Origin: Cenarchaeum sp.
Lineage (GTDB): Archaea; Thermoproteota; Nitrososphaeria; Nitrososphaerales; Nitrosopumilaceae
NCBI GenBank assembly: GCA_965242695.1
Contig: CBDESU010000002.1
Coordinates: forward strand, 672,001 to 736,000
DNA length: 64,000 nucleotides
Direction: 5' to 3'
Positions 12,445 through 60,055 of the stretch are shown here, in pieces (within the stretch, counting starts at the first letter, position 1; each line of letters begins with the position of its first letter). The notes under the pieces are model-generated. The model was not told the origin of the DNA, searched no databases, and saw only the letters and a program-made list of their open reading frames with translations. A program made the position numbers and the translations under genes.

Positions 12445-12476
12445 GCGGGGGCCGCGCCGGCGCGGCGCGCGCAGCC

Positions 12477-28380: not shown

Positions 28381-28382
28381 AC

Positions 28383-39092: not shown

Positions 39093-39629
39093 ATGTTCGA
39101 CTTTGACGAGTTCGACAAGCTCTTCCGCGGGATGCACGGGTCGTTCGTGAACCTCGACGACCTGCTCGATGCGGCAAGGCATGCAGGCGCCGGCGGCTCT
39201 GGCCGCATCGGCCCGTACTACTACGGGTACACGATGACGGTGGGGCCCGACGGCCGGCCGGTCGTCCGGGAGTACGGCAACGTGCGCCCGGGCCTGGCCG
39301 GCGACGGCTCTGGCGGCGGCGACTGCTGCGCGCCGGCCGTCCGGGACGGCCTGCAGGCCGAGACCATCCTCGACGACAAGGAGCGCGTCCTCAAGCTGGT
39401 CGCAGAGATGCCCGGCGTAGAGAAGGAGGACGTCAAGATCGTCGTCGACGGCGATGCGGTGAGCATCGACGCCGACCGCGGCAAGAAGAGCTACCACGCA
39501 AGGGTCCCGCTCGACCAGAAGGTCGACAAGGACACTGCAAAGGCTACGTACCGCAACGGGATACTCGAGCTGGCCTTCAGGCTGGCCGATCCCGACCCCC
39601 CCAAGGGGACGGCGGTGGAGGTCCAGTAG
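39093..39629 (+). CDS. hsp20: Small heat shock protein Hsp20
   Basis: [37 protein letters not shown]. Confidence 0.93.
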
Positions 39630-39647
39630 CCCTCTCCTTTTTTACTA

Positions 39648-41981: not shown

Positions 41982-42016
41982 ATAAAAGCCCGCTATTGTA
42001 GGCCGGGCGCCGTTAC

Positions 42017-43457: not shown

Positions 43458-43781
43458 CCGCACCTGTACGCGGCGCCGCGCTATTTACGTGTTGAAGGGG
43501 GCCGTTCGCGCCGCCGCTCGGGCCGCATGCGGCGGGGCCAGGCAGGGCGGGGCGGTGCGTGCGCGCGCGATCCCCGCCGCGCAGAGGTCGAACCTCAAGG
43601 GCCCAAAGGGAACACGCTGGCGCGGCCCACTAACGGCTTTTGGAGACGGACTCCATTTACGTTGCGGCGGGGCCTGGAAGGGCCCGGTTTTACCCGCGCG
43701 CGCACGGGCGCAGGCGCCGCCGCCCCCGATATAGCGGTTGCCGCCCGCCGATCTTTAATACGCCGCCTCGCCACACCGGAC

Positions 43782-46181
43782 ATGGCGACCCCGACGATCC
43801 TGCCCGAGAACGTCGGGTACCTTGCCCTGTTTGCCGTCGGCCTGATAATGGCCGCCGCCGTCACGCTCATGGTCAGGGCCGAGGCGAGGTGGGGCGGCGC
43901 GCGCAAGACGTCCGAGTGGTTCTACACGGCGGGGCGCACGATCAAGACGGGGCTGATAGCCTCGTCGATCGTCTCGGCGTGGACCTGGGCGGCGACCCTC
44001 CTGCAGTCCTCGACGGTCGCCTTCGAGTTCGGCGCGGCCGGCGCGTTCTGGTACGCCGCCGGCGCCTCGATCCAGGTCATACTGTTCTCGATCCTGGCAA
44101 TAGAGCTCAAGCGCAAGGCGCCGATGACCCACACGTTCCCCGAGGTGCTGTACGTCCGGTACGGCCGCCACCCGCACAAGGTGTTCCTGTTCTTTGCGCT
44201 GCTGACGAACACCGTCGTCACGGCCATGCTCGTGCTCGGCGGCGCGGCCGTCGTCAACTCGCTCACCGGCGTCGACATAACGCTTGCCGCGTTCCTGCTG
44301 CCGGCCGGCATCATCCTGTACACGGTGTTCGGGGGGCTAAAGGCGACGTTCTTTGCCGAGTACCTCAACGCGGCGTTCATCTTTGCCGTCGTGCTCGTGT
44401 TCGTCACGGCGATCTACTTTGCAAGCCCCGACATCGGCGGCGTGCCGGGCATGTACGAAAAGCTCACCGAGGCGGCCGCGCTGCGCCCCGTCGAGGGCAA
44501 CGCGCTCGGCAGCTACCTGACCCTTGCGTCGGCCGGCGCCCTCGTGTTCGGCGTGATCAACATCGTCGGCAACTTTGGCACCGTGTTCGTCGACCAGTCG
44601 TACTGGCAGAGGGCGATTGCGGCCAGGCCGCGGTCGGTCGCCGGCGGCTTCCTGGCCGGCGGCCTTGCGTGGTTTGCGATACCGTTCGCGCTTGCGACCA
44701 CGCTCGGCCTTGCCGCCGTCGCCACCGGCATCGAGCTGACCGAGGACGAGGTCGGGCTCGGACTGGTCGCCCCTGCGGCCGCATCTGCCCTGATGGGCGA
44801 CCTCGGGGCGATCCTCATACTCACGATCGTCTTCACCGCCGTGACGGCGGCCGGCTCGTCGCAGCTCGTCAGCGTCTCGTCGCTGCTCACGTACGACGTG
44901 TACCGCACGTACCTGCGGCCGTCGGCGACGGGCCGCCAGCTCATGCGCATATCGCGGTTCGCCATACTGTCGTTTGGAATAGGCATGGGCGCGCTCGCCT
45001 CGTTCCTGTTCCAGCTCGGCGTCGGGCTCCAGTACGTCTACCTCATGATGGGCATACTCATCGGGCCGGCCGTCGCGCCGATCTCGCTCGGCGTGCTCTG
45101 GCGCCGCACCAACCGGCGGGCCGCCACGGCGGCCGCCGTGGCCGGCCTGGCCGCCGGCTTGGCGGCCTGGACCGGAGCCGCGGCGGCCCTGTACGGCGAG
45201 GTTACGATCGAGACAACCGGACGCACGGCGGCCCTGCTCGCCGGCAACGTCGCATCGATAGGGGTGAGCCTGGCCATCACGCTCGCCGGCAGCGCGGCGT
45301 TCCCCGAGAGGTTCGACTTTGGGGTGCTCCGGCAGAAGATACACCTCGTCGACGACCGGGTGCGCTCGGCGATGCGGCGCGACTCGGACGAGGCAAGGCT
45401 CCGCCGCGCATCGTCCGTGTGCAAGAGGGCCGGCATCGGGGTCACGCTGTTCCTGGTGGTCGTCTGGCCGGCCTCGCTGTACCTGTCGGGGCACGTCTTT
45501 ACGCCCGTCTCGTTTGCCGCGTGGATCGCGCTCATGGTCGTGTGGGCGTTCGGCTCGGCGGCAACGGTCGCACTGCTGCCGGTGATCGAGGCCCGCTCGA
45601 GCATAGGCAGCATACTCGCAAGGGCCGGCGCGGCCGCCTCGGCGGCGGCCTCTGGAGCCGCCGCCCGCTCGGCCGACCCGCCGCCCGCGCGCCGGCTGCT
45701 CGTGGCCATTGACGGCTCGCCGCCGTCGCTGCGCGCCCTCGGCGGCGCGCACGGCCTGTTCGGCGCCGACGCAAGGGCGCGCGTCTACATGCTGCACGTG
45801 GTCAGGCCTCCTTCCGATGCGCCGCCGCCGGGCGGCAGCGGAGGCGGCCCGGGGGCAGACCACGAGGCGATGATGCGCGAGGGCCGTCTGGTCCTCAGGA
45901 GCGTGGCGGTGCCGCGGCACGCCGGCGGCGGCAGCGGCGGCAACGACTACCGCCGCATAGTAAAGGTCGGCGACCCGGCCAGGGTCATTGCAGAGACGGC
46001 CGACCGGCTCGGCGTCGACGTTGTCGTGATGGGGCGTAGCGGCCTGGGCAGGCGCAACGGCGCCGCGGCCGGCGCCGATGCCGATGCCGCAGGCGCGGCC
46101 CGCCGCCCGCCCGGCGAGATGGGGAGCGTGGCCATCTCGGTCCTTGCCCTGACCTCAAAGCCGGTCGCGTTTCTCGGCTAG
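43782..46181 (+). CDS. DUR3-like urea:sodium symporter fused to a C-terminal universal stress protein (USP) domain
   Basis: VSAWTWAATLLQSS, GNFGTVFVDQSYWQ; RLLVAIDGSPPS...GDPARVI...VVMGRSG...MGSVA. Confidence 0.9.
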   Translation: MATPTILPENVGYLALFAVGLIMAAAVTLMVRAEARWGGARKTSEWFYTAGRTIKTGLIASSIVSAWTWAATLLQSSTVAFEFGAAGAFWYAAGASIQVILFSILAIELKRKAPMTHTFPEVLYVRYGRHPHKVFLFFALLTNTVVTAMLVLGGAAVVNSLTGVDITLAAFLLPAGIILYTVFGGLKATFFAEYLNAAFIFAVVLVFVTAIYFASPDIGGVPGMYEKLTEAAALRPVEGNALGSYLTLASAGALVFGVINIVGNFGTVFVDQSYWQRAIAARPRSVAGGFLAGGLAWFAIPFALATTLGLAAVATGIELTEDEVGLGLVAPAAASALMGDLGAILILTIVFTAVTAAGSSQLVSVSSLLTYDVYRTYLRPSATGRQLMRISRFAILSFGIGMGALASFLFQLGVGLQYVYLMMGILIGPAVAPISLGVLWRRTNRRAATAAAVAGLAAGLAAWTGAAAALYGEVTIETTGRTAALLAGNVASIGVSLAITLAGSAAFPERFDFGVLRQKIHLVDDRVRSAMRRDSDEARLRRASSVCKRAGIGVTLFLVVVWPASLYLSGHVFTPVSFAAWIALMVVWAFGSAATVALLPVIEARSSIGSILARAGAAASAAASGAAARSADPPPARRLLVAIDGSPPSLRALGGAHGLFGADARARVYMLHVVRPPSDAPPPGGSGGGPGADHEAMMREGRLVLRSVAVPRHAGGGSGGNDYRRIVKVGDPARVIAETADRLGVDVVVMGRSGLGRRNGAAAGADADAAGAARRPPGEMGSVAISVLALTSKPVAFLG

Positions 46182-46186
46182 GCCGC

Positions 46187-47050
46187 CTATCCCTTCCTGA
46201 TTCCCGCGAACGGCCTGCCGGCGCATCGGGACCTTGCGGCCGCGACGACGTCGAGCACGGCATTCCTGACGTCGGCGGCGCGCGCCCCGAGCAGCCTGCC
46301 GAGTATGCCGGATCCGTCGCGCATGACGCTGCACCCGCCCGCCACGCCGGCCCGCCCCGACACGGCCGCCCCGACATCGCCGAGCAGCGCCTCGACGTTG
46401 CGGCGCGGCGTCATCACGTATACGGTGCCGACTACGCCGTGCCCTCCCATCGAGCCGGGCGCCGACAAGTCTAGCCTCGACGGCTCGAGCCGCGCCGCAT
46501 CGGCGAACCTGCGCCGCCCGCCGCACCCGAACGCCTCCGTCCCCAGGTCGCATGCATCGTACTTGAACTCCTCGCCCATTGCCGCCCGCCCCGCCGCGAC
46601 GACCTCGGAGCCGACCATGGTCGCCCCGTCGTGCACGTCAAGCCGCACGCGCTGCCTGAACCTGGCCCCCTCGTACGGGATGATCTGGTCGGGGATCATC
46701 TCCAGGTACGCCCCGTCGGCGACCGACACGCGCACGTCCTGGGAGGCAAGGCCGCCGGGATCCATTCCGTACACCCTGGTCGCGCCCTGCGTCGTGACGT
46801 GCGCCATGGACCACGGCCCGGCCGCTATGTCCACCGAGTACCTGTCGCCCTGCAGCATCCCGCCGGCGACCGACGCCACGTACAGGTACGCCATCGGCGA
46901 CCCCGGCCCGTCGCAGTACATGACGCGCTGCGCCGCGAGCGGAACCTTGGCCGAGACCCTCTCGGCCACGGTGCGGCCGCCCGGCCCGCCTGCCGCAAAC
47001 GCCACCTCGAGCCGCCCGGCCCGGCCCGCCGCCTCTCCCCTGCCCGTCAT
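46187..47050 (-). CDS. ureD: Urease accessory protein UreD
   Basis: GGMLQGD, TTQGATRVY, PDQIIPY, GRAAMGE. Confidence 0.9.
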   Translation of the reverse strand: MTGRGEAAGRAGRLEVAFAAGGPGGRTVAERVSAKVPLAAQRVMYCDGPGSPMAYLYVASVAGGMLQGDRYSVDIAAGPWSMAHVTTQGATRVYGMDPGGLASQDVRVSVADGAYLEMIPDQIIPYEGARFRQRVRLDVHDGATMVGSEVVAAGRAAMGEEFKYDACDLGTEAFGCGGRRRFADAARLEPSRLDLSAPGSMGGHGVVGTVYVMTPRRNVEALLGDVGAAVSGRAGVAGGCSVMRDGSGILGRLLGARAADVRNAVLDVVAAARSRCAGRPFAGIRKG

Positions 47051-47745
47051 GCCCCTCCCTCCCCGCCGGCCGCCCTGGGCGGCGCATCGAACAGCAGGTC
47101 GCGCACGATCCGGCCTGCCACGTCGCCGACGCCCTGGTCGGTCGTGCAGTCTACCATGGCAAACGGCCTGCCAGCGCGCACGCGCTCCGCATCGGCGCGC
47201 ATCACGCCGAGGTCGGCGCCGACGTGCGGCGCAAGGTCGATCTTGTTTATGACGAGCAGGTCGCAGTTCTGTATGCCGAGGCCGCCCTTGCGCGGGTACT
47301 TGTCCCCGCCGGCGACATCCACAATGTAGATGAAGTAGTCGGCAAGCAGCGGGCTGAACGTCGTCGTCACGTTGTCCCCGCCGCTCTCGATCAGGATCAG
47401 GTCGAGCTCGGGGTGGTCCCTCTCCATCTCCTCGATCACCGACATGTTGAGCGACGGATCCTCCCGCACCGCCGTGTGCGGGCAGCCGCCCGTGGCGAGC
47501 CCCACGACCAGGTTCTCTGGGAGCAGCCCCTGGTCCGTGGCCAGCCCCGCCCTCATGCGGTCCGCGTCCTCCTTTGATATGACGTCGTTCGATATGATGC
47601 TCATCCTGTACCCGCGAGCGGCAAGGACGGGAACGACCCGCTCGATGAGCATGCTCTTTCCGGCGCCGACGGGTCCGCCTATGCCGACCCTTGGTATGCG
47701 GCGCGGCCCCCCCTCTTCCTCGCGGCCCCCCTCGTTCGCGTCCAT
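47047..47745 (-). CDS. ureG: Urease accessory GTPase UreG
   Basis: GGPVGAGKS, GGCPH, ESGGDN, NKID. Confidence 0.95.
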   Translation of the reverse strand: MDANEGGREEEGGPRRIPRVGIGGPVGAGKSMLIERVVPVLAARGYRMSIISNDVISKEDADRMRAGLATDQGLLPENLVVGLATGGCPHTAVREDPSLNMSVIEEMERDHPELDLILIESGGDNVTTTFSPLLADYFIYIVDVAGGDKYPRKGGLGIQNCDLLVINKIDLAPHVGADLGVMRADAERVRAGRPFAMVDCTTDQGVGDVAGRIVRDLLFDAPPRAAGGEGGA

Positions 47746-47759
47746 TTTGCACCCTCCCC

Positions 47760-48518
47760 TCACGCGGCGAACATCCTCGCGTCCATCCGCTCGTGGTCCA
47801 TCTGCGCAATCTCGGCGAGCGGGGCGAACTGCCACGCCCCCTCCGCCCCCTCCCCGCTTTCCGCGCGGCCTCCGGCCTCCCGCGCCGCCTCGGCCATCCG
47901 CGGCTTGAGGCCGTGTATGATCTCCTGCCCCTCCATGTGGTGTATGATCCCGAGCCGCAGCGCCGCGCCGACCATCGATGCGGCAAAGCCGTACAGCGCG
48001 ACAAGGGCCGCATGCCCTGGGGTCATCCCGAGCGAGCCGCAGCATGCCCCGAGCGCGACGGGATACGCGCCAGAGGCGGCGCCCGACGAGATGGCCCGAT
48101 GGTACCTGGCTAGGGCATTGCCGTCCCCGCCGAACCCCTTGACGCACCTGGCCAGCTGCGCGCCCGACCTTGCCGCCGCCTCCCTCTGCTCCCTGACCGG
48201 CTTGAGGGCCGAGCACCTTTCGTCCAGCTCGACAAGCCCCGCATCGTCGCCGCCGGCCGCAAGCGAGCACGCACGCGCCGCCATGACGCAGTCGCACGGC
48301 CCGACCTGCTGGTCGATCAAGGTGCGGCACAGCCCTGCTAGCGCGCCGGCCGACGCTATCGACCCGTCAAGAAACATCGACTCGAGGCCGTTGGACGTCG
48401 CAAACAGCCCCGACGGAAACATAGAGTCGGACAGCTGCATCGCGCCGAGCAGCTGCATCTCGGCCCCGCCGGCGGCCGTGCCGCCGCCGTCGTTGCGGCC
48501 GCCGTCATTCGTGGCCAC
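47760..48518 (-). CDS. ureF: Urease accessory protein UreF
   Basis: QLSDSMFPSGLFATSNGLE; C-terminal HERMDARMF. Confidence 0.9.
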   Translation of the reverse strand: MATNDGGRNDGGGTAAGGAEMQLLGAMQLSDSMFPSGLFATSNGLESMFLDGSIASAGALAGLCRTLIDQQVGPCDCVMAARACSLAAGGDDAGLVELDERCSALKPVREQREAAARSGAQLARCVKGFGGDGNALARYHRAISSGAASGAYPVALGACCGSLGMTPGHAALVALYGFAASMVGAALRLGIIHHMEGQEIIHGLKPRMAEAAREAGGRAESGEGAEGAWQFAPLAEIAQMDHERMDARMFAA

Positions 48519-48999
48519 GCACGTCCGCCCCCCCGTGCGGCCGGAACACCCCTTCGGACACCTCTAGCTCGACGCCTCCCTCGATGCGGCCAAACAGGCT
48601 CCTGAACACGTCCGCCTCCGAGTCGGCCTGCAGGGGAAACGAGATCGACCCGCCATCGGCCGACACCGAGATCGGCCTGTGCCTGTTGCCGACTATGTGG
48701 CCGACAAGGAACGCAACTGCGTTCCCCGCGCCGCCTGCCGGCCTTGCGGTGGCGATCTTTTCGGGCGCCTGCTCTACCAGTATGCGCCCGCCGTCCCCGC
48801 CGCCTGCATCAAGCAGGTCGCCGTCGCGCAGGACGGTGCCGGCCGGCAGCGACACCGCAATGTCCGTTCCCCCCTCGGTCGTCTTTCTGATCCTGCTCTT
48901 TTCAAGCTCGGCCCTTGTCATCCTGACCCGATCGACGACGTTCCCCCCCTCTTCCTCCCCGGCCCCGCCGCGCGCAACGGACTTGACTGCTACCAGCAT
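48505..48999 (-). CDS. ureE: Urease accessory protein UreE
   Basis: KSRIRKTT...LRDGD...GHIVGNRH. Confidence 0.9.
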   Translation of the reverse strand: MLVAVKSVARGGAGEEEGGNVVDRVRMTRAELEKSRIRKTTEGGTDIAVSLPAGTVLRDGDLLDAGGGDGGRILVEQAPEKIATARPAGGAGNAVAFLVGHIVGNRHRPISVSADGGSISFPLQADSEADVFRSLFGRIEGGVELEVSEGVFRPHGGADVRGHE

Positions 49000-49088
49000 G
49001 CCCCACGCCGCGGCGCCCTACAATATCAAAATTGCGCCCCCCGCAGGGCCGTCCTGCGCCCCACGCCCGCGCGCCTTATTCCTGTCCG

Positions 49089-49961
49089 CTAGAATGCGCC
49101 GGCGGCCACCCCCGACACTATGGCGATCCCGATTGCCACGCTGGCGATGCCAATGCCTGCCCGCATCGCCCTCTTGGCCCTGTCCAGCCTGGCCGCAAAG
49201 GCAAACGGGAGCGACAGCGTCCCGCTCGCCAGCATCATGCCGGCGACCGAGCCGGCCCCAAAGGCGAGGACCATCGCGATCCCCGCCTCCATGCTTCCCA
49301 TGGCGGATGCGCCCAGGGCGATCAGGCCCCCGCTGCCTGCCAGTCCGTGTATGCAGCCGATCAGGTACGACCTGTGCCCATGCCGGTGCGCACTGCCCCC
49401 GTCCCAGCCTCCGTGCGAGTGCGGGTGCGTGTGGACCGTGCCCCCCGCGTGCGAGTGCGGGTGCGTGTGGACCGTGCCCCCCGCGTGCGAGTGCGGGTGC
49501 GGATGCGCCCCGCCTCTTCCCCTTCCCCGCATCCTCCTCCAAAGGCCAAGCATGCTGGTTCCGGTCCACGCCGACACGCCGAGCGCCACGAGCATGACGC
49601 CGACGGCCGCCTCGAGCCCGTCAAAGACGGCGCCCGGAATGCTCAGCGAAAAGGCGAGCACGCCGAGCGCCACGAGCAGTATGGCCGAGGTGTGGCCGGC
49701 GCCCCACAGCGCGCCGAGGAGCGAGCCGCGCGACAGGGCCCTTTTGACGCGTACGGGATCCGCCTCTTCCCCTCGCCGCCCTCCCGTCCTCCCGTGACCC
49801 GATGCGAGCACGGCCGCCACGTGATCGGGATCCAGGGCGTGCGCCAGCCCGACGACCACCCCAGCCGAGAGGAGCGCGGCAGGCGCCGCCGCGGCCGCAA
49901 CAGCGGCAACCCCCTCCCCGCCTCCGGCCCCCATCGCCTGCGCCACAATCTCGCCGAGCAC
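49089..49961 (-). CDS. Nickel transporter / UreH-like (NiCoT-related) membrane protein with His-rich loop
   Basis: HALDPDH, WGAGH, (HTHPHSHAGGTV) repeats, IHGLAGSG. Confidence 0.85.
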   Translation of the reverse strand: MLGEIVAQAMGAGGGEGVAAVAAAAAPAALLSAGVVVGLAHALDPDHVAAVLASGHGRTGGRRGEEADPVRVKRALSRGSLLGALWGAGHTSAILLVALGVLAFSLSIPGAVFDGLEAAVGVMLVALGVSAWTGTSMLGLWRRMRGRGRGGAHPHPHSHAGGTVHTHPHSHAGGTVHTHPHSHGGWDGGSAHRHGHRSYLIGCIHGLAGSGGLIALGASAMGSMEAGIAMVLAFGAGSVAGMMLASGTLSLPFAFAARLDRAKRAMRAGIGIASVAIGIAIVSGVAAGAF

Positions 49962-49974
49962 AGCAACCGCCCTC

Positions 49975-50388
49975 CTACTCCTCCCCGCGGCCGCCGCCCT
50001 CCGGCCAGAGGCCCTGCCGCCCGATCTCGATTGGCCTGTCTATCGCCACATGGGCGGCCTTGCCGAGCCCGTCCATCTCGAGCTCAAACCTCATCGAGTA
50101 GAGCATCTCTGGCACGCCGACCATTACGTTGTGCGGCTCGAGCATGCCGCGCGCATCCTCGGCTATCCGCCGCCCGTCCCTGCCGTCCCCGACCGACACG
50201 GCAACGTAGGCTGCGAACATCAGCAGGGCATCGTTGACGTTGAGCCGCATGCCGCGCGCGAGCATGTCCCTGATCCTGCCCGCCGAGGCGGCAAGCACGT
50301 CGTCGTCAAGACCCGCATACTCGAACACCCTGCGAAGCGGGGCTGCGTGCGGCCCGGCCTCGGCGGCCGTGACCGCGATGCGCATCAT
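49975..50388 (-). CDS. Divergent urease gamma subunit (UreA)-like protein
   Basis: ARGMRLNVNDAL...DGRD...VMVGVPEML aligns with [10 protein letters not shown]...DGRS...VLPGVPEMI of ureA at 57657. Confidence 0.75.
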   Translation of the reverse strand: MMRIAVTAAEAGPHAAPLRRVFEYAGLDDDVLAASAGRIRDMLARGMRLNVNDALLMFAAYVAVSVGDGRDGRRIAEDARGMLEPHNVMVGVPEMLYSMRFELEMDGLGKAAHVAIDRPIEIGRQGLWPEGGGRGEE

Positions 50389-51500
50389 CCCCTCTTGGGG
50401 ATCACGGCGCGGGGCCCGCCAAAGCTGTACGTGTTCCCCGTCCCCCTGTAGTCGCGCGGCCTGACCGGATCGCCCCCCTCCAGCCCGCGCTTCGTGAGCG
50501 ACAGGCCGGCGAGCAGCTCTACGATCAGCCGCTGGCCTAGGCCCGACGTTATGCCCCCGTTGTACGAACTGTTGTCGCTAACGTCGTACGCCGGCGCGAC
50601 CTCGACGAGGTCCATGGCGAACCTGTCCGGGTCGAACGACTTTGAGAGCAGGCGGATCATCCGTATGCCCTCCCTCGACGTCAGGCCGTTCGGCTCGGGC
50701 TCGCCCGTGCCGGGCGCGTACGCCGGATCGAACGAGTCGATGTCCCAGCTCAGGTACACCGCGTCGGTGCCGTCGTTGGCCCTGTCGGCGATCTCCTTTG
50801 CGATGTAGTCGATGCCGAGCTCCTCGACGTCGAGCATCGTAAACCACTGAAAGTCCTGGTCGGACATCCACTTGTACAGGTCGGGCCCCGGCCAGTACCC
50901 GCGCGGCCCCACTAGCGAGTAGTTCCTGCCCCTCAGGCACCCGATCTCCATGATCCTCCTAATGTGCGCGCCGTGGTCGTACTTGTACCCCGTCAGCCCC
51001 TGCGGGGCGCAGTCCGCGTGGGTGTCGAAGTGGATCATGCCGATGTTCTTGTACTTTTTGGCGAACGCCCGCACGTTGGCGTACGTGATCGAGTGGTCGC
51101 CGCCGAGCATGACGGGGATGCCGTCCTGCTCGAGCACCTCCTTTACCTTTACGGTCATCCTCTTGTGCGACTCGATGACGTCGCCGGGCGAGACCTGCAC
51201 ATCCCCGTAGTCGACCGTCCTGAACGTCCCGAACGGGTCGGCGCCGGTCTCTATGTTGAACCTCTCGTACGGCGGCGACGGTATCGTGGATGCGGCCCTG
51301 AGGGCGCGCGGCCCGTACCTTGCGCCCGGCCGTATCGTCGTGCCAAAGTCGAACGGCTCCCCTATTATGGCCACATCGGGCCTCGCCTCGACGAGCTGCT
51401 CGCGCGTCTGCACCCACGGCAGGTGCAGGAACGTGTTGATCCCGACGAACGGCGCCACGTCGGCGCCGCGGTACGCGTCGCCGTAGAACTCCATGCCCAT
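50385..51500 (-). CDS. Ureohydrolase (agmatinase/arginase superfamily), substrate unknown
   Basis: RPGARYGP, GGDHSI, DTHAD, WDIDSFDP, PGTGEPEPNGL, DLVEVAP. Confidence 0.92.
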   Translation of the reverse strand: MGMEFYGDAYRGADVAPFVGINTFLHLPWVQTREQLVEARPDVAIIGEPFDFGTTIRPGARYGPRALRAASTIPSPPYERFNIETGADPFGTFRTVDYGDVQVSPGDVIESHKRMTVKVKEVLEQDGIPVMLGGDHSITYANVRAFAKKYKNIGMIHFDTHADCAPQGLTGYKYDHGAHIRRIMEIGCLRGRNYSLVGPRGYWPGPDLYKWMSDQDFQWFTMLDVEELGIDYIAKEIADRANDGTDAVYLSWDIDSFDPAYAPGTGEPEPNGLTSREGIRMIRLLSKSFDPDRFAMDLVEVAPAYDVSDNSSYNGGITSGLGQRLIVELLAGLSLTKRGLEGGDPVRPRDYRGTGNTYSFGGPRAVIPKRG

Positions 51501-51544
51501 GCGAACCGCACCACGCTACGGCCGGCATATACATAAGGAATCCA

Positions 51545-51555
51545 CGTAAAGTACG
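51545..51555. promoter_or_regulatory. CGTA-N3-TACG palindrome (also 52910-52920 and 56721-56731; near-match 56688-56698)
   Basis: cgtaaagtacg / cgtattgtacg / cgtatagtacg, each intergenic next to a TATA-like box. Confidence 0.55.
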
Positions 51556-51606
51556 CACGCGCGCCGGCCGGGGCACTGGTTAAATGCAGGCGCGGCAATT
51601 CCCTGC

Positions 51607-52878
51607 GTGGCGGGATCCGCGGGGGGCGAGTGGGCGCTGATCGCCGAGGGGCGCCGCTGGGAGGGGTACGGCGAGTTTCAAAGGGCCGCCTCGTGCTTTG
51701 AGAGGGCCCTGCGCATCGACGCGCGCAACGCCGTCGCGCTGCTGCGCCTCGGGCACGCGCTGTACGGGTGCGAGAGGTTCTCGGACGCCGAGGCGCGCTT
51801 TTCCGAGGCCCTCGCCGAGGCGCCGCGCGGGATCGACGCGCTGTACGGCCGCGGCCTTGCCCTTGAAAAGCTAGGCCGCTTCGAGGAGGCGGCCGGGTGC
51901 TTTGCGGCCGTCTCCGAGATCGACGCCTCGTACTCTGACGCGCAGTCCTGCAGGGCATCGTGCCTGAGCGGCGCAGGCCGCCACGCCGAGGCGCTGCGGC
52001 TCGTCGACGAGGCCCTAACGTCGCGGCCGGGCGATTCGTCCGCCGCCTTCTACTGCAAGAGCCGCATCCTGGGCAGGATGGGGCGCGCAAAAGAGTCCGT
52101 GTCGTGCCTTGAGGAGGCCATACGCGAGGACTCGAGGCGCTCTGCCGAAAGGTACGAGGAGGGCGCGGCCCTGGCCCGGCGCGGCAGGCACGAGGATGCG
52201 ATCGCGCTGTACACGGAGGCCATCAGGCTGGACCCAAAGAACACGCGCGCCCTTGTCGCAAAGGGCTGGACGCTGGACTTGGCCGGCCTCCCGCCCAAGG
52301 AGGCCGTGGCCTACTTTGACAGGGCGCTGGCCGTCGATCCGCGCTGCCACGAGGCGCTCATCAACAAGGGCATACTGTACGACCGCACGGGCCTCTACAA
52401 GAAGGCCGTCGAGTGCTTTGACCGCGTGCTCGGCGACGATCCGGCCAGCGCAAGGGCCATGTACAGCAAGGCCGTCTCCCTGTTCGGCCTAAACCAAAAG
52501 GCCGCGGCCGTGTTCTTCTGCGAGAGCGCCATCCGGCTCGACCCGACGAACGTAAAGGCGCTGTGCAGCATGGTATGGATACTCGAGCACAGCAAGAGGT
52601 ACGCCGACGCGCTCGCCTACTGCGACAGGGCCCTTGCCGAGGACCCCGGCTACGCCTACGCGGCGAGCTATCGCGGCAAGCTGCTCCTGCTCCTCGGCAG
52701 GCACGACGAGGCCCTCTCGCAGTACGACAGGGCGCTAGAGCTCGACCCCGGCAACCGCACCGCCATCTACCACCGCGACAGGGCCCTCGAAAAGGTAGAG
52801 GCGGAGGAGCGGCGGCGGGGCGGCGGGGCGCCGCGGCTGCGGCGGCTGTTTGGCCGCCCCGGGCCGGCGGCCGCGTAG
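51607..52878 (+). CDS. Tetratricopeptide repeat protein
   Basis: Multiple 34-aa repeats (A..YFDRALAVDP, KG..L, ALELDP). Confidence 0.9.
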   Translation: MAGSAGGEWALIAEGRRWEGYGEFQRAASCFERALRIDARNAVALLRLGHALYGCERFSDAEARFSEALAEAPRGIDALYGRGLALEKLGRFEEAAGCFAAVSEIDASYSDAQSCRASCLSGAGRHAEALRLVDEALTSRPGDSSAAFYCKSRILGRMGRAKESVSCLEEAIREDSRRSAERYEEGAALARRGRHEDAIALYTEAIRLDPKNTRALVAKGWTLDLAGLPPKEAVAYFDRALAVDPRCHEALINKGILYDRTGLYKKAVECFDRVLGDDPASARAMYSKAVSLFGLNQKAAAVFFCESAIRLDPTNVKALCSMVWILEHSKRYADALAYCDRALAEDPGYAYAASYRGKLLLLLGRHDEALSQYDRALELDPGNRTAIYHRDRALEKVEAEERRRGGGAPRLRRLFGRPGPAAA

Positions 52879-52974
52879 CGCCGGCGGCCGCGCGGCGCGC
52901 CGGAAAATGCGTATTGTACGCACGCCCCGCCCGCCCGAAAAAAGCCTTAAATCAAACCGCCGCACTTGCGGGGC

Positions 52975-53229
52975 ATGGTTCAAGTCTCGACGGCCGAGGA
53001 CATCGACAGGGAGTCGCGCAGGGTGATCGCCTCGCTCTACGGCGACGGCGTGTCGGACTTTCGCGTCAACGAGTCGTTTGCGGTGCCCGAAAAGGGGCCG
53101 CGCGAGGCGTGGGACGTGCAGGTCAACTTCATGCTCAACGGCCTAAAGTACACCGTCGACCTGGAGATACAGGAAAAGGACTGCCAGGTGACCAACGCGC
53201 GCCTGATCGACACGATGACCCCCCTGTAG
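52975..53229 (+). CDS. Small hypothetical protein
   Basis: MVQVSTAEDIDRESRR...; TTAAAT box about 25 nt upstream; typical codon usage. Confidence 0.75.
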   Translation: MVQVSTAEDIDRESRRVIASLYGDGVSDFRVNESFAVPEKGPREAWDVQVNFMLNGLKYTVDLEIQEKDCQVTNARLIDTMTPL

Positions 53230-53264
53230 TTTTTTGCGTGCGGCCGCGGGCGGGCGGCCCCTGC

Positions 53265-54977
53265 CTAGTAGTGGTGGTGCATCTGCCGCTGCTCGAGCCC
53301 CTCCTGCTCCCAGTGGCTGTGGTTCCTGCCGGGATCCTTGTGCGCGTGGACCGTCCCGTCTATGTGGCAGTGGGTGTTGTCGATGAGGTCCTTTACGAAC
53401 ACGTCGTCGACGTTGAGGATCAGGGCGGCCGTCTCGACGGCCGACTTTAGCACCTGCCTCTTGACGGCGGCCGTCTCGACGACGCCCGACCCCGACATGT
53501 CGGCGACCCTCCTCGCAGACGAGTCTATGCCGTGCCAGCAGCGGGCGGGGCCCCCGCCTGCCTCCGCCCCGCCGCCTCGCCGGGCGTGCTCCGACCTGAG
53601 CCTGGGCAGGGCGTCGAGCGGGCTCATCCCGACGTTCCCTGCAAGGGTCGCCGGGACCTCCTCGAGTGCATCGGCGACGCGCGATGCGGCAAGCTGCCGC
53701 TTGCCCTCGAGCGAGACGGCGCGCTCCCTGACGTCGCGCGCCATGGCGGCCTCGCATGCGCCCCCGCCGAAGACGACGTACGGCCTCTCGATATAGTTGC
53801 GGAGGACAAAGATCGCGCTCTTTGCCGTCCGGTGGAACTCGTCAAGGTGCTCCTTTGAGACCGCCCGCAGCAGCAGCGTGACCGACCGGGGCCTCTCGGA
53901 CTCGACGAACACCATCCTGTCGCCGCCGACGCTGCGCTCGTACACGCGGGATGCGAAGCCGAGCTCTTCCTCGGATATGTCCTCTACGCTGCGGCACGTC
54001 CTTGCGCCGGTCGCCTTTTCGAGCCACCACAGGTCGTTGTACTTTGCCCTGCGCACGGAGACAATGCCCTCGGCGGCGAGCATCTCTTGGGCGCGCGCGC
54101 CGATCCCCTTCCTTGATATGACCACCCTGGCGCCCGACTCGACGACCCTTCTTGCGAGCATCGCCACATTGGCGCCCTCTTGCAGGGCGAACTGCGCCAT
54201 GTTGTTCGGCGACGTCACTATGATCTCGGACTCTGTCCTTGTCCTGGTCGCCTCCAGCTCGTCGTTGATCAGCAGCACCTTTGCGTCCCTGACGGCGCGG
54301 GGCATGGCCGGGCTGTCCACGGGCTTGTCGATAACGGTCCCCATGACCAGCTCTATGCGCTCCGAGCCGCCCCGCTTTTCCTCGATCTTGATGTCGTCGA
54401 CGTCGACCGCGCCGGCGCGCGCATCGTGCACGGCCGAGACCGCGCCGACGACGGCATCGCGCACGGACTCCCTGTCGGCCATCGAGTCGAATATCGCCTT
54501 GCCCGAGAGGCAGGTGTCGACGAGGCTGTTCATCGTCGCAGCGTCCGCGCCCCCCGCCCGCACCTCCATCCCGTCGAGCGACTCTAGGGCGAACTCGAGA
54601 CCCGCCTCGAACCCGTCGATTATGGATGCCGTCGGCACGCCGGAGGCGCGCAGGTGCTGCGCGTGGCCGAGCAGGGCGCCGATCAGGACGGCCGCCGTCG
54701 CCGTGCCGTCGCCGACGTGCGTGTCGACGGCATTGACCCCCTCGACGACGGCCTTTGCCGCCGGATGGTCCACGTCGAGCTTGCGCAGGAACGCCCCACC
54801 GTGCTTTGTAATCGTCGCCTCGCCGAGTATGTCGATGTACACCTTTTCCATGCCCCTGGGGCCGAGCGACGTCCTTACGGTGTCCGCGGCCAGGCGAGCT
54901 GCCACCAGGTTGTACGCCTGCGACTCGCGCGCGCCGATCCTGGACAGCTCGGGGTTGAATATGTCGGGATACTTCAT
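53265..54977 (-). CDS. Divergent group II chaperonin (thermosome-like) with His/Cys-rich C-terminal tail
   Basis: SLGPRGMEK, DVDHPAAK, GDGTAT, DDIKIEEK, GGGACE; tail HCHIDGTVHAHKDPGRNHSHWEQEGLEQRQMHHHY. Confidence 0.9.
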   Translation of the reverse strand: MKYPDIFNPELSRIGARESQAYNLVAARLAADTVRTSLGPRGMEKVYIDILGEATITKHGGAFLRKLDVDHPAAKAVVEGVNAVDTHVGDGTATAAVLIGALLGHAQHLRASGVPTASIIDGFEAGLEFALESLDGMEVRAGGADAATMNSLVDTCLSGKAIFDSMADRESVRDAVVGAVSAVHDARAGAVDVDDIKIEEKRGGSERIELVMGTVIDKPVDSPAMPRAVRDAKVLLINDELEATRTRTESEIIVTSPNNMAQFALQEGANVAMLARRVVESGARVVISRKGIGARAQEMLAAEGIVSVRRAKYNDLWWLEKATGARTCRSVEDISEEELGFASRVYERSVGGDRMVFVESERPRSVTLLLRAVSKEHLDEFHRTAKSAIFVLRNYIERPYVVFGGGACEAAMARDVRERAVSLEGKRQLAASRVADALEEVPATLAGNVGMSPLDALPRLRSEHARRGGGAEAGGGPARCWHGIDSSARRVADMSGSGVVETAAVKRQVLKSAVETAALILNVDDVFVKDLIDNTHCHIDGTVHAHKDPGRNHSHWEQEGLEQRQMHHHY

Positions 54978-55027
54978 CGCTCGCTCGCCCCCTGCGCCCG
55001 CTCCCGCCAAATGGCGGGCGGGCCCCG

Positions 55028-56644
55028 CTACGCCGCCCTGGCCTCCGCCGGCGCCCGCTGGCCCGGCCTTGCCTCCGGCCTGTCCGCCCCCTCGTCCCCT
55101 CCGGCATCGTCCCCGCCGAGCCCCGACGTCATAAAGCCGCTCTTGAAGTGCTTGAGGTCCTCGCCGGCGATCACATCCTCCTCGGGCGGGACATAGTCCC
55201 TCACGTCGTGCCGGGCCTTTCCGGGGTACCTGCCCTGCGTCGCGAGCGCCACCGCTATGAACACCAGGAACGAGACCATGGCGGCGACCATCGTGTCGAG
55301 CCCGACCAGATCCTCGGGTATGGCAAAGAAGAGGTACAGCCTGAGGAACGAGCCGACGAGGAGGGCGGCCACGGCGGCCGGCATGTTCGACTTTTTCCAG
55401 AACAGGCCGAACGTGAGCGGCGCGAGCGCGCCGGCGAACATGATGTCGAACGCGAGCACAAGGTAGACGCCGGGCGCCGGCACGAGGTAGCCGAGCGTCG
55501 CGCCGGCGGCCATCATCGGTATTATGGCCACGCGCGTCATCAGGAGCAGCCTCCTGTCGCTCGTGCCCGGCCGGCCTAGCCACCTCCTCTGGATTATGCG
55601 GACAGCCAGGTTGCGCGAGACGACGCTCGATATGGCCAGCAGGCCGCCGCTTGCCGTCGACATCGACGCGCCGACGACGCCCATCAGTATGGCGGCCCCT
55701 ATCGCGAACGGCAGGTGCTCGGTCGCCAGTATGGGCAGGACCAGGTCGGGCAGCGTGTCGGCGGGGAGGTAGTAGAGCGCGACGATGCCGAGCATGCTCG
55801 TCGGGACGACCGTGAACAGGGTCAGGGCCCCGCCCATGAAGGCGCCGCGCCGCGCCACCTTTGGGCTCTTTGCGGCAAACACCCTCTCCATAAAGTCGAG
55901 CGCGATGATGTCCCCGAGGCCGAGCGCGAGTATGGTCGCCCAGCTTATCAGCGCGCCGTTGCCCACGTCGAAGAGGCCTGACAGGTCCACCGCCGCTGCC
56001 GGCGCGCTCCCGTAGATGACGTCCCACGGCGCGTCGGCGAACCCGCCGGCGAAGAATATGAAGCCGGCCCAGAACGCGGCGATCGCCAGGTACACCTGGA
56101 AGAGGTTCGTGTACGCCGATGCGAACAGCCCGCCGGCCGAGGTGTACACCAGGACGACCAGCGCCGATATCAGTATGCCCCAAAAGTAGTCTATCCCGAA
56201 TACGGTCTCCATGATGAACCCACTTGCGGCCAGGTTGCCGGCCACCAGTATGGTAAAGCTGATGATCATCAGGACGCTCGATATGCCCTCGGCCCCGTTG
56301 CCGAACCGCCTGAAGTAAAAGTCCGGCAGGGTGATCATCGACATGCGGTTGAGCGGCCGCGCAAAGAACGCGGCCGTGACGAGCAGGCATATGCCGAGCC
56401 CTATGGGGACCGTCGCGCCGGCCCAGAACCCGAACTCGAAGACGAGCGCCGCGTTGCCGAGCGTGGAGTTGCCGTCGACGGCCTGCGCGGCGAGCATCGT
56501 GCCGACCATCACGAGGGGGAGGCTCTTGCCGGCCACGATGAGGCGCTTGCCGCTCTTCCTGACGAGCCTGCCGGCGAGGACGCCGACGGCGAGCGTCAGC
56601 ACGATGAACGCGGTGATCGCGATGCCGAAGCCGTCAAACTCCAT
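55028..56644 (-). CDS. Sodium:solute symporter (SSS) family transporter, non-DUR3 type
   Basis: AGKSLP, TLPDFYFRRFG, YTSAGGL, GASMSTASG; about 13 TM. Confidence 0.9.
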   Translation of the reverse strand: MEFDGFGIAITAFIVLTLAVGVLAGRLVRKSGKRLIVAGKSLPLVMVGTMLAAQAVDGNSTLGNAALVFEFGFWAGATVPIGLGICLLVTAAFFARPLNRMSMITLPDFYFRRFGNGAEGISSVLMIISFTILVAGNLAASGFIMETVFGIDYFWGILISALVVLVYTSAGGLFASAYTNLFQVYLAIAAFWAGFIFFAGGFADAPWDVIYGSAPAAAVDLSGLFDVGNGALISWATILALGLGDIIALDFMERVFAAKSPKVARRGAFMGGALTLFTVVPTSMLGIVALYYLPADTLPDLVLPILATEHLPFAIGAAILMGVVGASMSTASGGLLAISSVVSRNLAVRIIQRRWLGRPGTSDRRLLLMTRVAIIPMMAAGATLGYLVPAPGVYLVLAFDIMFAGALAPLTFGLFWKKSNMPAAVAALLVGSFLRLYLFFAIPEDLVGLDTMVAAMVSFLVFIAVALATQGRYPGKARHDVRDYVPPEEDVIAGEDLKHFKSGFMTSGLGGDDAGGDEGADRPEARPGQRAPAEARAA

Positions 56645-57061: not shown

Positions 57062-57583
57062 ATGCCCAAGAACGGCTACTCGACGCTGGGGCTCAAGCCG
57101 GGCACGTTCTCACTCCTCGAGAGCCTCACCGACACGTTCTACCCGGGCATGTTCCTGCCGAGCACCCTGATCATGCTCATGAACGAGGTCAGGCGGGGGT
57201 CGTACCAGGTCAGCATGCACCCCGTGCAGGTCAGCAGGTCGGGGCGCTACAAGACGCTGACGGTCCGCTCCGACGTCCGCGCGTGGCTCGAGGAGACGTA
57301 CGAGGAGAACTCGACGGCGTACAAGGGCAGGTACCATACAAAGTGCTTTGCCCACTTTGTGAGCTACTTTGTGGCCAACCTCTTCAAGTCAAAGTTCGAG
57401 GCGCAGCACAACGTGATAAAGCTCAAGGAGTCCGACTTTACGTGGCTCCACGACGAGTACCAGAAGCACAGAAAGGCCGACGGCGACCCCTACGACACGT
57501 CGTCGTTCGAGCGGTTCGCCGACTCGTACGTCAACGACCTCCTCGGCAAGGTGAGGGCCGCAAGGGAGATGCTCGCCGCATGA
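57062..57583 (+). CDS. Hypothetical protein, possibly tandem ribbon-helix-helix-like
   Basis: Typical codon usage, TTTAAA box upstream; three strand-helix-helix-like units. Confidence 0.7.
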
Positions 57584-57656: not shown

Positions 57657-57959
57657 ATGATCTTCACCCAGGGCGAGGCCGAGAAGATGCAGGTGTTCGT
57701 CGCAGCCGAGATCGCCCGGCGCCGCCGCGGCCGCGGCCTAAAGCTGAACCACCCAGAGGCCGTCGCGCTGATCGCCGACCACATACTCGAGGGGGCCAGG
57801 GACGGCAGGTCGGTGCCCGAGCTTGCAAGCTCGGGCCGCTCCGTGCTCGCGCGCGGCGACGTCCTGCCGGGAGTGCCCGAGATGATCCGCTCCGTCCAGG
57901 TGGAGGCTACGTTTGAGGACGGCACAAAGCTCGTCACGGTCCACGATCCGATAGTGTGA
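57657..57959 (+). CDS. ureA: Urease subunit gamma
   Basis: [26 protein letters not shown]. Confidence 0.97.
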
Positions 57960-58327
57960 TGCCCATGATCCCCGGCGAGTACTTTCTGGGAGACGGCGAC
58001 ATCGCCGCCAACGAGGGGCGCCCGACCGTCACGGTCAGGGTCGCCAACACGGGCGACCGGCCCGTGCAGGTCGGCTCGCACGCGCACTTCTTCGAGGTCA
58101 ACAAGGCGCTATCGTTCCCGCGGGCCGACGCGTACGGGTTCCACCTGAACATACCGGCGGGCACGTCGGTGCGCTTCGAGCCGGGCGACGAGCGCGACGT
58201 GGAGCTTGTCGGGTACGGCGGGCGCCGCACCGTGCACGGGTTCAGCGGCCTGGTCCGCGGCCCGCTCGACGAGAGGCGCGATGCCGCGATGCGGGCGGCC
58301 CGGGAGGGCCGCTTCAAGGGGGTGTAG
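57959..58327 (+). CDS. ureB: Urease subunit beta
   Basis: [26 protein letters not shown]. Confidence 0.97.
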
Positions 58328-58330
58328 GCG

Positions 58331-60055
58331 ATGGCCCTGACCATACCGCGCAACCGGTACGTAGACCTGTTCGGGCCGACGGCCGGCGACCGCATCCGGC
58401 TTGGCGACACCGACCTCGTAATAGAGGTCGAGAGGGATCTCTTGCGGCACGGCGACGAGGCCGTGTTCGGCGGGGGCAAGAGCGTGCGGGACGGGATGGC
58501 GCAGGCCTCGGGCGCGCCGCGCAGCGCCTCGCTCGACCTGGTCATTACGAACGCGGTCGTCATGGATCCCGTCCTCGGCATCATAAAGGCCGACATCGGC
58601 GTCAGGGACGGCCGCATAGCCGGGGTCGGAAACGCCGGCAACCCCGACATCATGGACGGCGTAGACATGACGATATCGTCGCATACGGAGGTCATCGCCG
58701 GCGAGCACACCATCTGCACGCCGGGCGCAATCGACGCGCACATTCACTTCATCTCGCCGCAGCAGGCGGTGACGGCCGTGTGCGCCGGCACCACGACGAT
58801 GATCGGCGGCGGGACGGGCCCCGCCGACGGCACGAACGCGACGACGTGCACGCCCGGCGAGTGGAACATACGCCGCATGATAGAGTCCGTCTCGGAGTTT
58901 CCGCTCAACTTTGGCCTCCTCTGCAAGGGCAACGACTCGCAGGAGGGGCCGCTGCTCGAGCAGGTCGCCGCCGGAGCGTGCGGCCTCAAGCTGCACGAGG
59001 ACTGGGGCACGACGCCCGCGACGATAGATGCGGCCCTCCGCGTCGCCGACCAGACCGACACGCAGGTTGCAATACACACGGACACGCTCAACGAGTGCGG
59101 CTACGTCGACGACACGATAGCCGCAATCGCGGGCAGGACTATACACACCTACCACACCGAGGGGGCCGGCGGGGGGCACGCACCCGACATTATGCGGGTC
59201 GCCGGCGAGGCCAACGTCCTGCCGTCCTCGACGAACCCGACACGCCCGTTCACCGTCAACACTCTCGAGGAGCACCTGGATATGATGATGGTGTGCCACC
59301 ACCTGAGCCCGTCGGTCCCCGAGGACGTCTCGTTCGCCGAGTCGCGCATACGGCGCGAGACCATAGCGGCCGAGGACGTCCTGCACGACATCGGGGCGAT
59401 CAGCATGATGTCCTCCGACAGCCAGGCCATGGGGAGGGTCGGCGAGGTGACGGCGCGCAACTGGCAGACGGCCGACAAGATGAAGCGCTCGACGGGGCCG
59501 CTGCCCGAGGACATGCGCGCCTCGGGCGGGCGCAACGACAACTCAAGGGCCCTGCGCTACCTTGCAAAGATCACGGTCAACCCCGCCATAGCGCACGGCG
59601 TCTCGCGGCACGTCGGCTCGCTCGAGCCAGGCCGCCTTGCCGACATAGTGGTGTGGTCGCCGCAGTTCTTTGGGGCCAGGCCCAGGATGGTCGTAAAGGG
59701 AGGCATGATCGCGTACGCGCTCATGGGCGATCCGAACGCGTCGATCCCGACGACCGAGCCGGTCATGTACAGGCCCATGTTCGGGGCCCTCGGCGGGGCC
59801 AGGCGGTCGACGTCCGTGACGTTCACGTCGAAGGCGGCCCTCGAGGCGGGGCTGGCCTCCAAGATTGACGCCGGCCGGCCGCTCGTCGCCGTCGAGGGGT
59901 GCCGCTCGATAGGCAAGAGGGACATGGTCCGCAACTCGCTGACGCCGAAGATCGAAATCAACCCCGAGACGTACAGGGTTACGGTCGACGGCAAGGTTGC
60001 CGAGGCCGAGCCTGCCGAGCGCGTCCCCCTCGGCAGGCTGTACAACCTGTACTAG
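58331..60055 (+). CDS. ureC: Urease subunit alpha
   Basis: [40 protein letters not shown]. Confidence 0.98.

Follow-up and report, generated by a model that had tools for sequence, protein, structure and literature searches.

What does a ureohydrolase do in the middle of an archaeal urease locus? The question is raised by a 64,000-nucleotide stretch of DNA from Cenarchaeum sp. (contig CBDESU010000002.1; the whole stretch is called the window below), in which a gene of the ureohydrolase/arginase superfamily (50385-51500, minus strand; its product is termed UH) lies among the genes for urease, urease accessory proteins, and several transporters. A first-pass annotation of the window had proposed that the archaeon imports a guanidino compound, cleaves it with UH, and feeds the released urea to urease. 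The core of this idea, in which import precedes a step that releases urea for urease, appears well supported by three findings: UH co-occurs one to one with a particular transporter of the SSS family, it is nearly confined to urease-positive genomes, and both features are found in two archaeal phyla. Our preferred reading adds that UH is loaded with nickel or cobalt via a dedicated chaperonin, and we assign to it, as a whole, a probability of roughly 0.6.

The archaeal genome from which the window stems has a size of 3.89 Mb, a completeness of 96%, and a GC content of about 68%. The genome encodes archaeal AmoA, and the organism is therefore an ammonia oxidizer. Its close named relatives are metagenome-assembled genomes (MAGs) of the Nitrosopumilaceae and Nitrososphaeraceae; the genomes of its own family (f1) are mainly 1.2-2.2 Mb in size.

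Co-occurrence of UH, an SSS transporter, and urease

Gene content, conservation, and co-occurrence with urease were observed directly. Genes were counted in 251 genomes of the Nitrososphaeria, the window's own included. Orthologs of UH were accepted at an identity of at least 74%, orthologs of the SSS transporter encoded at 55028-56644 at an identity of at least 51%, and ureC at an E-value of 1e-48 or better. UH was found in 61 genomes and ureC in 100, the latter comprising 60 of the 61 genomes with UH versus 40 of the 190 genomes without it. The SSS transporter was found in 60 genomes, all of which contained UH, and it was encoded in none of the 190 genomes lacking UH, including the 40 that are urease-positive. 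The single UH-containing genome without ureC is a 60-contig MAG, and the single one without the transporter is a 210-contig MAG.

On this phyletic pattern, the UH-linked transporter was rejected as a urea transporter, for which the pattern is a poor fit. It had been described as a non-DUR3 member of its family, and its distribution indeed does not follow urease. The protein scored under every NCBIfam equivalog cut-off and is only 20-25% identical to the SSS transporter that follows ureC. The nearest solved chain was that of the high-affinity choline transporter CHT1 (E 6.6e-23), which carries an organic cation.

The second phylum was represented by 231 genomes of the Halobacteria, in which 19 loci were examined (G251, G252, and 17 further ones; a partial match in G409 was left out). 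UH with the glutamate motif described below (UH-E) was present in 19 genomes, and ureC was found in 18 of these versus 46 of the 212 others. At 18 of the 19 loci, an SSS ortholog (39% identity) and an AbrB/PhoU-like regulator were encoded within 4 kb of UH, with the regulator between the transporter and UH, and urease genes adjoined UH at only two loci. Judged from these counts, the pair of UH and SSS transporter and its dependence on urease appear to be conserved across phyla, with regulators and accessory genes being lineage-specific.

UH belongs to a distinct archaeal clade and scores below agmatinase cut-offs

UH matched the ureohydrolase family PF00491 with 271.6 bits (cut-off 22) over profile positions 2-277 of 280. 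The metal ligands H136, D159, H161, D163, D253, and D255 are kept, and the protein reads PGTG-E267-PEP-N271-GL, both as initially noted. The six ligands (His, Asp-x-His-x-Asp, and Asp-x-Asp) were invariant in the alignment of the UH clade, and the motifs were present at 46-47 of 47 archaeal loci.

UH scored under the cut-offs of two NCBIfam agmatinase models (TIGR01230, 156.6 versus 174.3; NF002564, 204 versus 302), and a second ureohydrolase paralog, which is encoded elsewhere in the genome, passed TIGR01230 (186.4 versus 174.3). UH is therefore not the housekeeping agmatinase. Typical agmatinases have a threonine after the GTG motif. Glutamate occupies this position in UH, and PGTGEPEP was found at all 47 archaeal loci (28 thaumarchaeal and 19 haloarchaeal), so that the SpeB motif was absent throughout; the 66 bacterial loci kept for the comparison read threonine. 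Identities to UH were 72-95% in the thaumarchaeal group, 50-57% in the haloarchaeal group, and at most 46% for bacterial relatives. On the basis of these comparisons, UH is assigned to a distinct archaeal clade.

In the alignment with the guanidinase 9FEK, E267 of UH falls on the tryptophan of the W313/W305 position, and the guanidinase tryptophan is thus replaced. This residue is, in the available text of PMC11410670, one of four proposed to matter for guanidine hydrolysis. As possible equivalents of the other three (Thr97/T105, His222, and Glu344), UH has the conserved residues T54/T55, H176, and E300, but aligned relatives that are not guanidinases have kept them as well. As a proxy for the relation to the characterized enzymes SpeB, GdmH, GbuA, PAH, and MfmAB, PDB chains were ranked by their scores against a profile of the UH clade. 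The order was Synechocystis GdmH (279 bits), Nitrospira inopinata guanidinase (264), GbuA (249), PAH (242), GpuA (229), and Escherichia coli SpeB (182), and MfmA reached only 124-169 bits in PDB scoring. The top two solved structures are both guanidinases and nickel enzymes.

Thaumarchaeal UH proteins also carry a conserved C-terminal extension (…RP-x-DYRGTGNTY-x-FG…IPKR-D/x; window 50385-50500) without counterpart in the bacterial relatives. It is pure speculation that this extension might be a recognition tag for a TPR-repeat protein or a chaperonin encoded nearby.

Gene organization of the locus

The proteins of the window were scanned with Pfam and NCBIfam, and the gene starts of ureG and ureD were placed separately. 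All genes that had been named in the first-pass annotation were recovered at their positions. The features are as follows.

50385-51500, minus strand: ureohydrolase UH, archaeal PGTG-E-PEP clade (PF00491, E 1.1e-80)
55028-56644, minus strand: SSS transporter, partner of UH (Pfam SSF, E 3.7e-26)
53265-54977, minus strand: thermosome paralog with a His-rich C-terminal tail (Cpn60_TCP1, E 1e-126)
49975-50388, minus strand: UreA-like protein, similar to urease gamma (Urease_gamma, 32.9 bits versus a cut-off of 23.9)
49089-49961, minus strand: NicO-type nickel/cobalt transporter with a His-rich loop (ESM Atlas, 0.96)
51607-52878, plus strand: protein with TPR repeats, gene divergent from that of UH (matches to many TPR families of Pfam, the best at E 2e-51)
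57062-57583, plus strand: 173-aa protein, candidate tandem ribbon-helix-helix (RHH) regulator (AlphaFold2 model, weak Foldseek matches)
48505-48999, minus strand: ureE (UreE_N, E 8e-15)
47760-48518, minus strand: ureF (UreF, E 7.7e-33)
47047-47745, minus strand: ureG (TIGR00101, 221.7 bits versus a cut-off of 204.2)
46187-47050, minus strand: ureD (UreD, E 4.7e-48)
57657-60055, plus strand: ureA, ureB, and ureC (Urease_gamma, E 7.8e-42; Urease_beta, E 1.1e-42; Urease_alpha and Amidohydro_1)
60347-62395, plus strand: SSS transporter of the canonical urease locus, probably for urea (SSF, E 1.4e-23)
43527-46181, plus strand: SSS-Usp fusion transporter flanking ureD (SSF and Usp domains)

The minus-strand run from UH to ureD contains intergenic gaps of 13 and 89 bp, and the remaining genes overlap, so that no gap exceeds 89 bp. 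The reported ATGA overlap between UH and the UreA-like gene is real, and the two are taken to be translationally coupled. The ureABC genes lie on the opposite strand, 6.1 kb from the start of UH. The second minus-strand unit likewise has the composition initially described: the SSS gene is followed, 50 bp on, by the thermosome paralog, which has nine histidines in its last 40 residues. The same genes recur around UH at 28 thaumarchaeal loci, and the arrangement is therefore not due to chance. Within 10 kb of UH, these loci contained the SSS transporter in 25 cases, the TPR protein in 23, the thermosome in 20, the 173-aa protein in 19, and the NicO-type gene in 16, and short contigs explain several of the misses. 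The TPR protein was encoded within 5 kb of UH in all of its 23 cases.

UH and its partners are separable from the urease locus

In 14 genomes, UH is located 93 kb to 2.2 Mb from ureC. The genes around UH in these split genomes encode the SSS transporter, the thermosome, the 173-aa protein, the TPR protein, UH, the UreA-like protein, and the NicO-type transporter. In 11 of these genomes, ureABC is accompanied by the full ureEFGD set as well as by the SSS-Usp fusion and the ureC-linked SSS gene. The latter follows ureC at 13 of the 14 separate urease loci with 67-91% identity, and the fusion flanks the urease locus also at 13 of 14. At two loci (L101 of genome G076 and L108 of G129), two matches to the ureC-linked SSS with identical alignment statistics were found a few kb apart; these pairs look like tandem duplications.

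Two further split genomes had a different arrangement. Their ureABC locus (L102 in G012, L110 in G100) lacks ureF in one case and lacks ureE, with ureF degraded, in the other, and the intact ureF, or ureE and ureF, adjoins the UH genes (L088, L096), hundreds of kb from ureABC. In one split genome, ure accessory genes were seen neither by UH nor by ureABC. Locus L099 (G133) contains fragments of ureC, ureG, and ureD next to the UH genes (16330-17898), recognized by split matches, and an intact urease locus is located 124 kb away. These patterns of split, missing, and broken ure genes suggest that the two gene groups were ancestrally contiguous and were split at different points.

Taken together, the true unit, as far as gene neighborhoods tell, is a module of seven genes: SSS transporter, His-tailed thermosome, tandem-RHH candidate, TPR protein, UH, UreA-like protein, and NicO-type transporter. 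In the window, this module is bordered by ureE on one side and by ureA on the other, both being part of a divergent urease locus of the canonical type, so that the position of UH at the head of ureEFGD is a local arrangement. The first-pass annotation had taken UH and the UreA-like protein, heading the genes for nickel insertion into urease, as the defining architecture, and this view finds no support in the 11 split genomes in which ureEFGD stay with ureABC. The associated proposal that UH is matured by the Ure-type machinery is not supported as a general feature. Because the other six genes travel with UH and ureEFGD do not, maturation by UreEFGD is only one possibility.

A thermosome paralog with a conserved histidine-rich tail

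The genome encodes two canonical thermosomes (616 and 615 bits with Cpn60_TCP1), one of them inside the window at about 18169-19638, and the divergent third one (424 bits). The third thermosome is barely above the cut-off of the family model NF041082 (451.7 versus 450) and below that of TIGR02339 (438.8 versus 671.1). Its His-rich tail, with 7-9 histidines in the last 45 residues, was present in 19 of 19 complete orthologs. In the Nitrososphaeria sample, the tail was found in 59 genomes, 58 of which belong to the 61 with UH; the remaining occurrence is a 64-aa remnant. The view that a His-tailed chaperonin is part of the system is thus supported. The three UH-containing genomes without the tail are the 210-contig MAG that also lacks the SSS gene and two genomes of family f5.

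In these two f5 genomes, UH itself ends in a His-rich tail. Their loci (L148 of G174, 5893-13204; L149 of G192) consist of one co-directional run of UH, NicO, ureA, ureB, ureC, ureE, ureF, ureG, and ureD, and neither the His-tailed thermosome nor the 173-aa protein was found in these genomes. In L149, UH and NicO are separated by the gene of an additional UreA paralog (40% identity to UreA). The either/or placement of the His-rich segment, on the thermosome or on UH, is the best hint that the segment serves UH. His-rich segments bind nickel, cobalt, or zinc rather than manganese, and this is a hint that UH is not a manganese enzyme.

An Hsp60 homolog is conserved in the urease loci of the Nitrososphaerales and of Nitrosocaldus and was not found in the Nitrosopumilales, according to the available text of Abby et al. 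2018 (PMC5797428). At two loci (L111 of G159 and L112 of G171), a second extra chaperonin is encoded between ureC and ureE, which is probably this homolog. It is only 25% identical to the module thermosome, which is thus a different paralog and can be ruled out as the known urease-locus Hsp60. The two have in common that each is an extra chaperonin paralog tied to a cluster of nickel and urea genes. Unlike the urease-locus Hsp60, however, the module thermosome has a conserved His-rich tail, is present in family f1, and tracks UH rather than urease.

The loop of the NicO-type transporter (49089-49961) and the thermosome tail (53265-53400) contain a similar H-x-DGT-x-H-x-H pattern, also in their orthologs. 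The pattern is possibly a common metal-binding motif.

The UreA-like, NicO-type, and 173-aa proteins

The UreA-like protein passed the Pfam cut-off for urease gamma but stayed under those of the NCBIfam UreA models (33 versus 123; TIGR00193, 31 versus 82.3). It aligns over the whole length of true UreA with 20-26% identity, is longer than the latter by about 20 residues at the N-terminus, is also extended at the C-terminus, and shares with UreA the motifs LN-x-x-EA and VM-x-GVPE and a C-terminal PI motif. Its gene follows UH and does not precede ureB, the true ureA being located at 57657-57959. At the 27 thaumarchaeal loci with a downstream flank, it was found directly after UH in 21 cases, one divergent open reading frame seen by eye included.

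The His-rich membrane protein encoded at 49089-49961 had no Pfam match even at an E-value of 1 and no NCBIfam match. The ESM Atlas placed it with 0.96 in the 'Nickel/cobalt efflux system family', with NicO on 84% of the cluster members, and it contains an H-x4-DH-like motif that we take to be a nickel/cobalt transporter signature. The gene was located 0.1-0.6 kb from UH at 15 of the 28 thaumarchaeal loci and 5.6 kb from it at one more. It is ruled out as a module-specific gene, because it was found in 75 of the 251 genomes, urease-negative ones among them; its product is best viewed as a general nickel/cobalt transporter that is merely parked beside UH. At locus L105 (G082, 13781-14490), a second NicO-type gene by ureD is split in two frames and is probably frameshifted.

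The 173-aa protein belongs to no Pfam or NCBIfam family. It was found in 50 genomes, 49 of which are among the 61 with UH, and the remaining match is a fragment. Its AlphaFold2 model (predicted local distance difference test score 87) shows two beta-alpha-alpha units plus helices, and Foldseek returned only weak matches (E 0.03-0.7), namely DndE and the tandem-RHH proteins TraY, from the F relaxosome, and VirC2. A function as a tandem-RHH regulator is a lead that the model suggests.

Further features of the window

Directly upstream of the urease locus, the window encodes Hsp20, a CDC48-type AAA ATPase, and a ParB-like protein (39093-42898). At 27940-28230, upstream of orc1/cdc6 (28359-29597, plus strand), a 19-39 nt element with the core AGAGTGGAAATGAAGGGGT occurs three times in direct and once in inverted orientation. 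The repeats lie in a stretch of low GC content (0.54) beside the Orc1/Cdc6 gene and have the appearance of origin recognition boxes at an origin of replication.

Proposed function and alternative explanations

According to the preferred reading, the SSS transporter would import a small, probably cationic guanidino compound, with free or lightly substituted guanidine as the first choice and agmatine-type compounds as the second. UH would hydrolyze the compound to urea and ammonia or an amine, and the ammonia that urease makes from this urea would enter nitrification and assimilation. UH is probably a nickel (or cobalt) enzyme, its folding or metal loading would rely on the dedicated His-tailed chaperonin, and the NicO-type transporter would supply the metal. 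Direction of transport, substrate, and metal are our predictions, as are the roles of the chaperonin and of the UreA-like, TPR, and RHH proteins. Nickel loading is plausible because a NicO-type gene stands beside UH, because of the His-rich tails, and because the nearest solved relatives are nickel guanidinases. A gene for the use of a second carbon product was found neither at the 28 thaumarchaeal nor at the 19 haloarchaeal loci, which fits guanidine, as its hydrolysis yields only urea and ammonia. Guanidine or small guanidines are favored for this reason and because of the glutamate at the site of the pocket-closing tryptophan, the matches of the profile to guanidinases, and the cation-like carrier.

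Several observations weigh against this reading. The genomes within a family are related, and the co-occurrence counts therefore overstate the number of independent cases. The six ligands of UH are the same as in manganese enzymes, so that sequence cannot separate nickel from manganese. The clade profile that ranked the guanidinases first includes three bacterial rows with the threonine motif, and a PDB search with the single UH sequence places the manganese enzyme GbuA first (175 bits) and the guanidinases next (165 and 161 bits). The NicO-type transporter lacks module specificity and may simply serve urease. At the 19 haloarchaeal loci, no special thermosome, no UreA-like gene, and no His tail were seen; a ZIP transporter gene directly follows UH at two of them (L017 and L147), and a His-rich ZnuA-type binding protein is encoded near UH at one (L018, 13467-14939). 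In addition, no known guanidine-degradation genes are reported for ammonia-oxidizing archaea (AOA) in the available text of Palatinszky et al. 2024 (PMC11410670), and the use of guanidine would therefore need a clade outside the guanidinase definition applied there.

The most conventional explanation is that UH is a second manganese-dependent agmatinase (SpeB) that produces putrescine and urea from agmatine, that the SSS protein is a low-affinity urea transporter, and that the chaperonin, NicO, and the UreA-like protein serve urease. Public sources name UH homologs agmatinase or guanidinobutyrase, the cluster of SSS and agmatinase genes was read in this way in the ISME J 2024 (PMC11131427, available text), most AOA are stated to have two to three speB copies in the accessible part of PMC10753782, and the Hsp60 homolog mentioned above shows that a chaperonin in a urease locus is nothing new (PMC5797428, in part). 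However, UH falls under both agmatinase cut-offs while a canonical paralog is encoded elsewhere, the exchange of threonine for glutamate is invariant at 47 of 47 loci, a transporter absent from all 40 urease-positive genomes without UH is a misfit for urea, and the His-tailed thermosome tracks UH, not urease, and is a paralog other than the urease-locus Hsp60. We therefore consider this explanation unlikely. A similarly low probability is given to the version of the first-pass annotation, in which UH is loaded with nickel by UreEFGD and the UreA-like protein is an adaptor that docks UreD, UreF, and UreG on UH. It would account for the co-direction of UH and the ure accessory genes in the window and in family f5, for the two genomes with ureF or ureE and ureF at the UH module and missing or degraded at ureABC, and for a true UreA homolog coupled to UH, and it is in line with the failure to find HypA in the genome. 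The near confinement of UH to genomes with urease, and hence with UreEFGD, also fits, but urea as the product explains this co-occurrence equally well. Evidence against it comes from the 14 split genomes, 11 of which have the full ureEFGD set at ureABC and not near UH, and from the UreA-like gene, which was not found at 6 of the 27 thaumarchaeal loci whose downstream flank is available, nor at any of the 19 loci from haloarchaea.

Least probable, in our judgment very unlikely, is a larger guanidino compound as the substrate of UH-E, such as arginine, a guanidino acid, taurocyamine, or a creatine-type compound from animal or sponge hosts, of which the nitrogen would be harvested and the carbon product excreted. 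The closest manganese-dependent relatives, GbuA and GpuA, do hydrolyze guanidino acids, the TPR-rich gene content and the large genome may indicate host association of the window's organism, and creatine and creatinine have been proposed for thaumarchaeal symbionts of sponges (available text of PMC6790972 and PMC6742649). Nevertheless, the carboxylate of E267 near the catalytic center would be expected to favor a guanidinium that is cationic or unsubstituted over the anionic guanidino acids, soil and free-living lineages as well as haloarchaea also have the module, and a gene for the second product is lacking at the loci.

The preferred reading, that is, import, hydrolysis to urea, and a chaperonin-assisted nickel or cobalt enzyme, can also be sharpened. 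Many AOA and some haloarchaea might use free guanidine or small methylated guanidines as a source of ammonia by means of a second, independently evolved nickel hydrolase with glutamate in place of tryptophan. This hydrolase would be folded and loaded by a dedicated group II chaperonin, the His tail of which would donate the nickel, instead of by HypA/HypB or UreEFGD, with the UreA-like protein linking it to urease or its machinery. This full version is tentative, and we regard it as rather doubtful.

Relation to known systems

The UH module can be viewed as a variation on the already known theme of a nickel ureohydrolase combined with urease. GdmH of Synechocystis (7ESR/7OI1) and the comammox guanidinase of N. 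inopinata (9FEK) have the same fold and the same six metal ligands as UH, and they release urea that is finished by urease, as proposed for UH; in the comammox case this serves a nitrifier (PMC11410670, available text). They differ in the specificity-determining tryptophan (W305/W313), which is Glu267 in UH, in their importers, which are of the ABC or APC instead of the SSS type, and in that no UreA-like protein and no His-tailed group II chaperonin are dedicated to them. Enzymes of the GdmH type have HypA/HypB-type chaperones, whereas no match to HypA (PF01155) was obtained in the genome of the window, at a completeness of 96%, which extends the initial observation that such maturases are absent from the window. 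The comammox guanidinase likewise lacks HypA/HypB-type chaperones, and its nickel loading is left unexplained in the available text of PMC11410670.

The MefH/DmgH operons, which encode metformin or dimethylguanidine hydrolases, contain hypA-hypB, two ureohydrolase genes, hupE, and urea genes, and activation of the enzyme needs dedicated accessory proteins (PMC11399263, accessible part). They resemble the UH locus in that the ureohydrolase is flanked by a nickel transporter and urea genes, but an alpha/beta pair, HypA/HypB, and HupE stand against a single ureohydrolase gene, the thermosome, UreA-like, and TPR proteins, and a NicO-type transporter. GbuA and GpuA of Pseudomonas aeruginosa (3NIO/3NIP) belong, like UH, to the 'agmatinase-like' subfamily acting on guanidino compounds. 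These two are manganese-dependent, read PGTG-T-PE instead of PGTG-E-PE, and lack the C-terminal extension and the SD-x-SSYNGGIT insertion of UH. SpeB is a member of the same Pfam family, but it has threonine where UH has glutamate, and UH stays under the curated cut-offs.

The idea of a chaperonin aiding a nickel enzyme is already in the literature, and HspA of Helicobacter pylori is a His-rich co-chaperonin. No description of the glutamate clade, the His-tailed thermosome, or the UreA-like gene was found in a literature search that covered neither the supplementary material of PMC11131427 nor that of PMC11410670; only the clustering of SSS and 'agmatinase' genes is noted in the available text of the former.

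Significance

To our knowledge, no organic nitrogen source other than urea and cyanate has been firmly tied to AOA. About one in four of the sampled AOA genomes, and 60 of the 100 urease-positive ones, contain the predicted import-and-hydrolysis module. If the proposed function is true, archaeal nitrification in the oceans, in soils, and in animal hosts would have guanidino compounds as an additional class of substrates. The more interesting partner of UH is the His-tailed chaperonin, because a thermosome with an invariant His tail tracks one enzyme in two AOA families; if the predicted role is true, it would be a new client-specific chaperonin or metallochaperone. It would also bear on the loading of nickel ureohydrolases in organisms such as comammox bacteria, in which HypA/HypB-type chaperones for these enzymes are missing.

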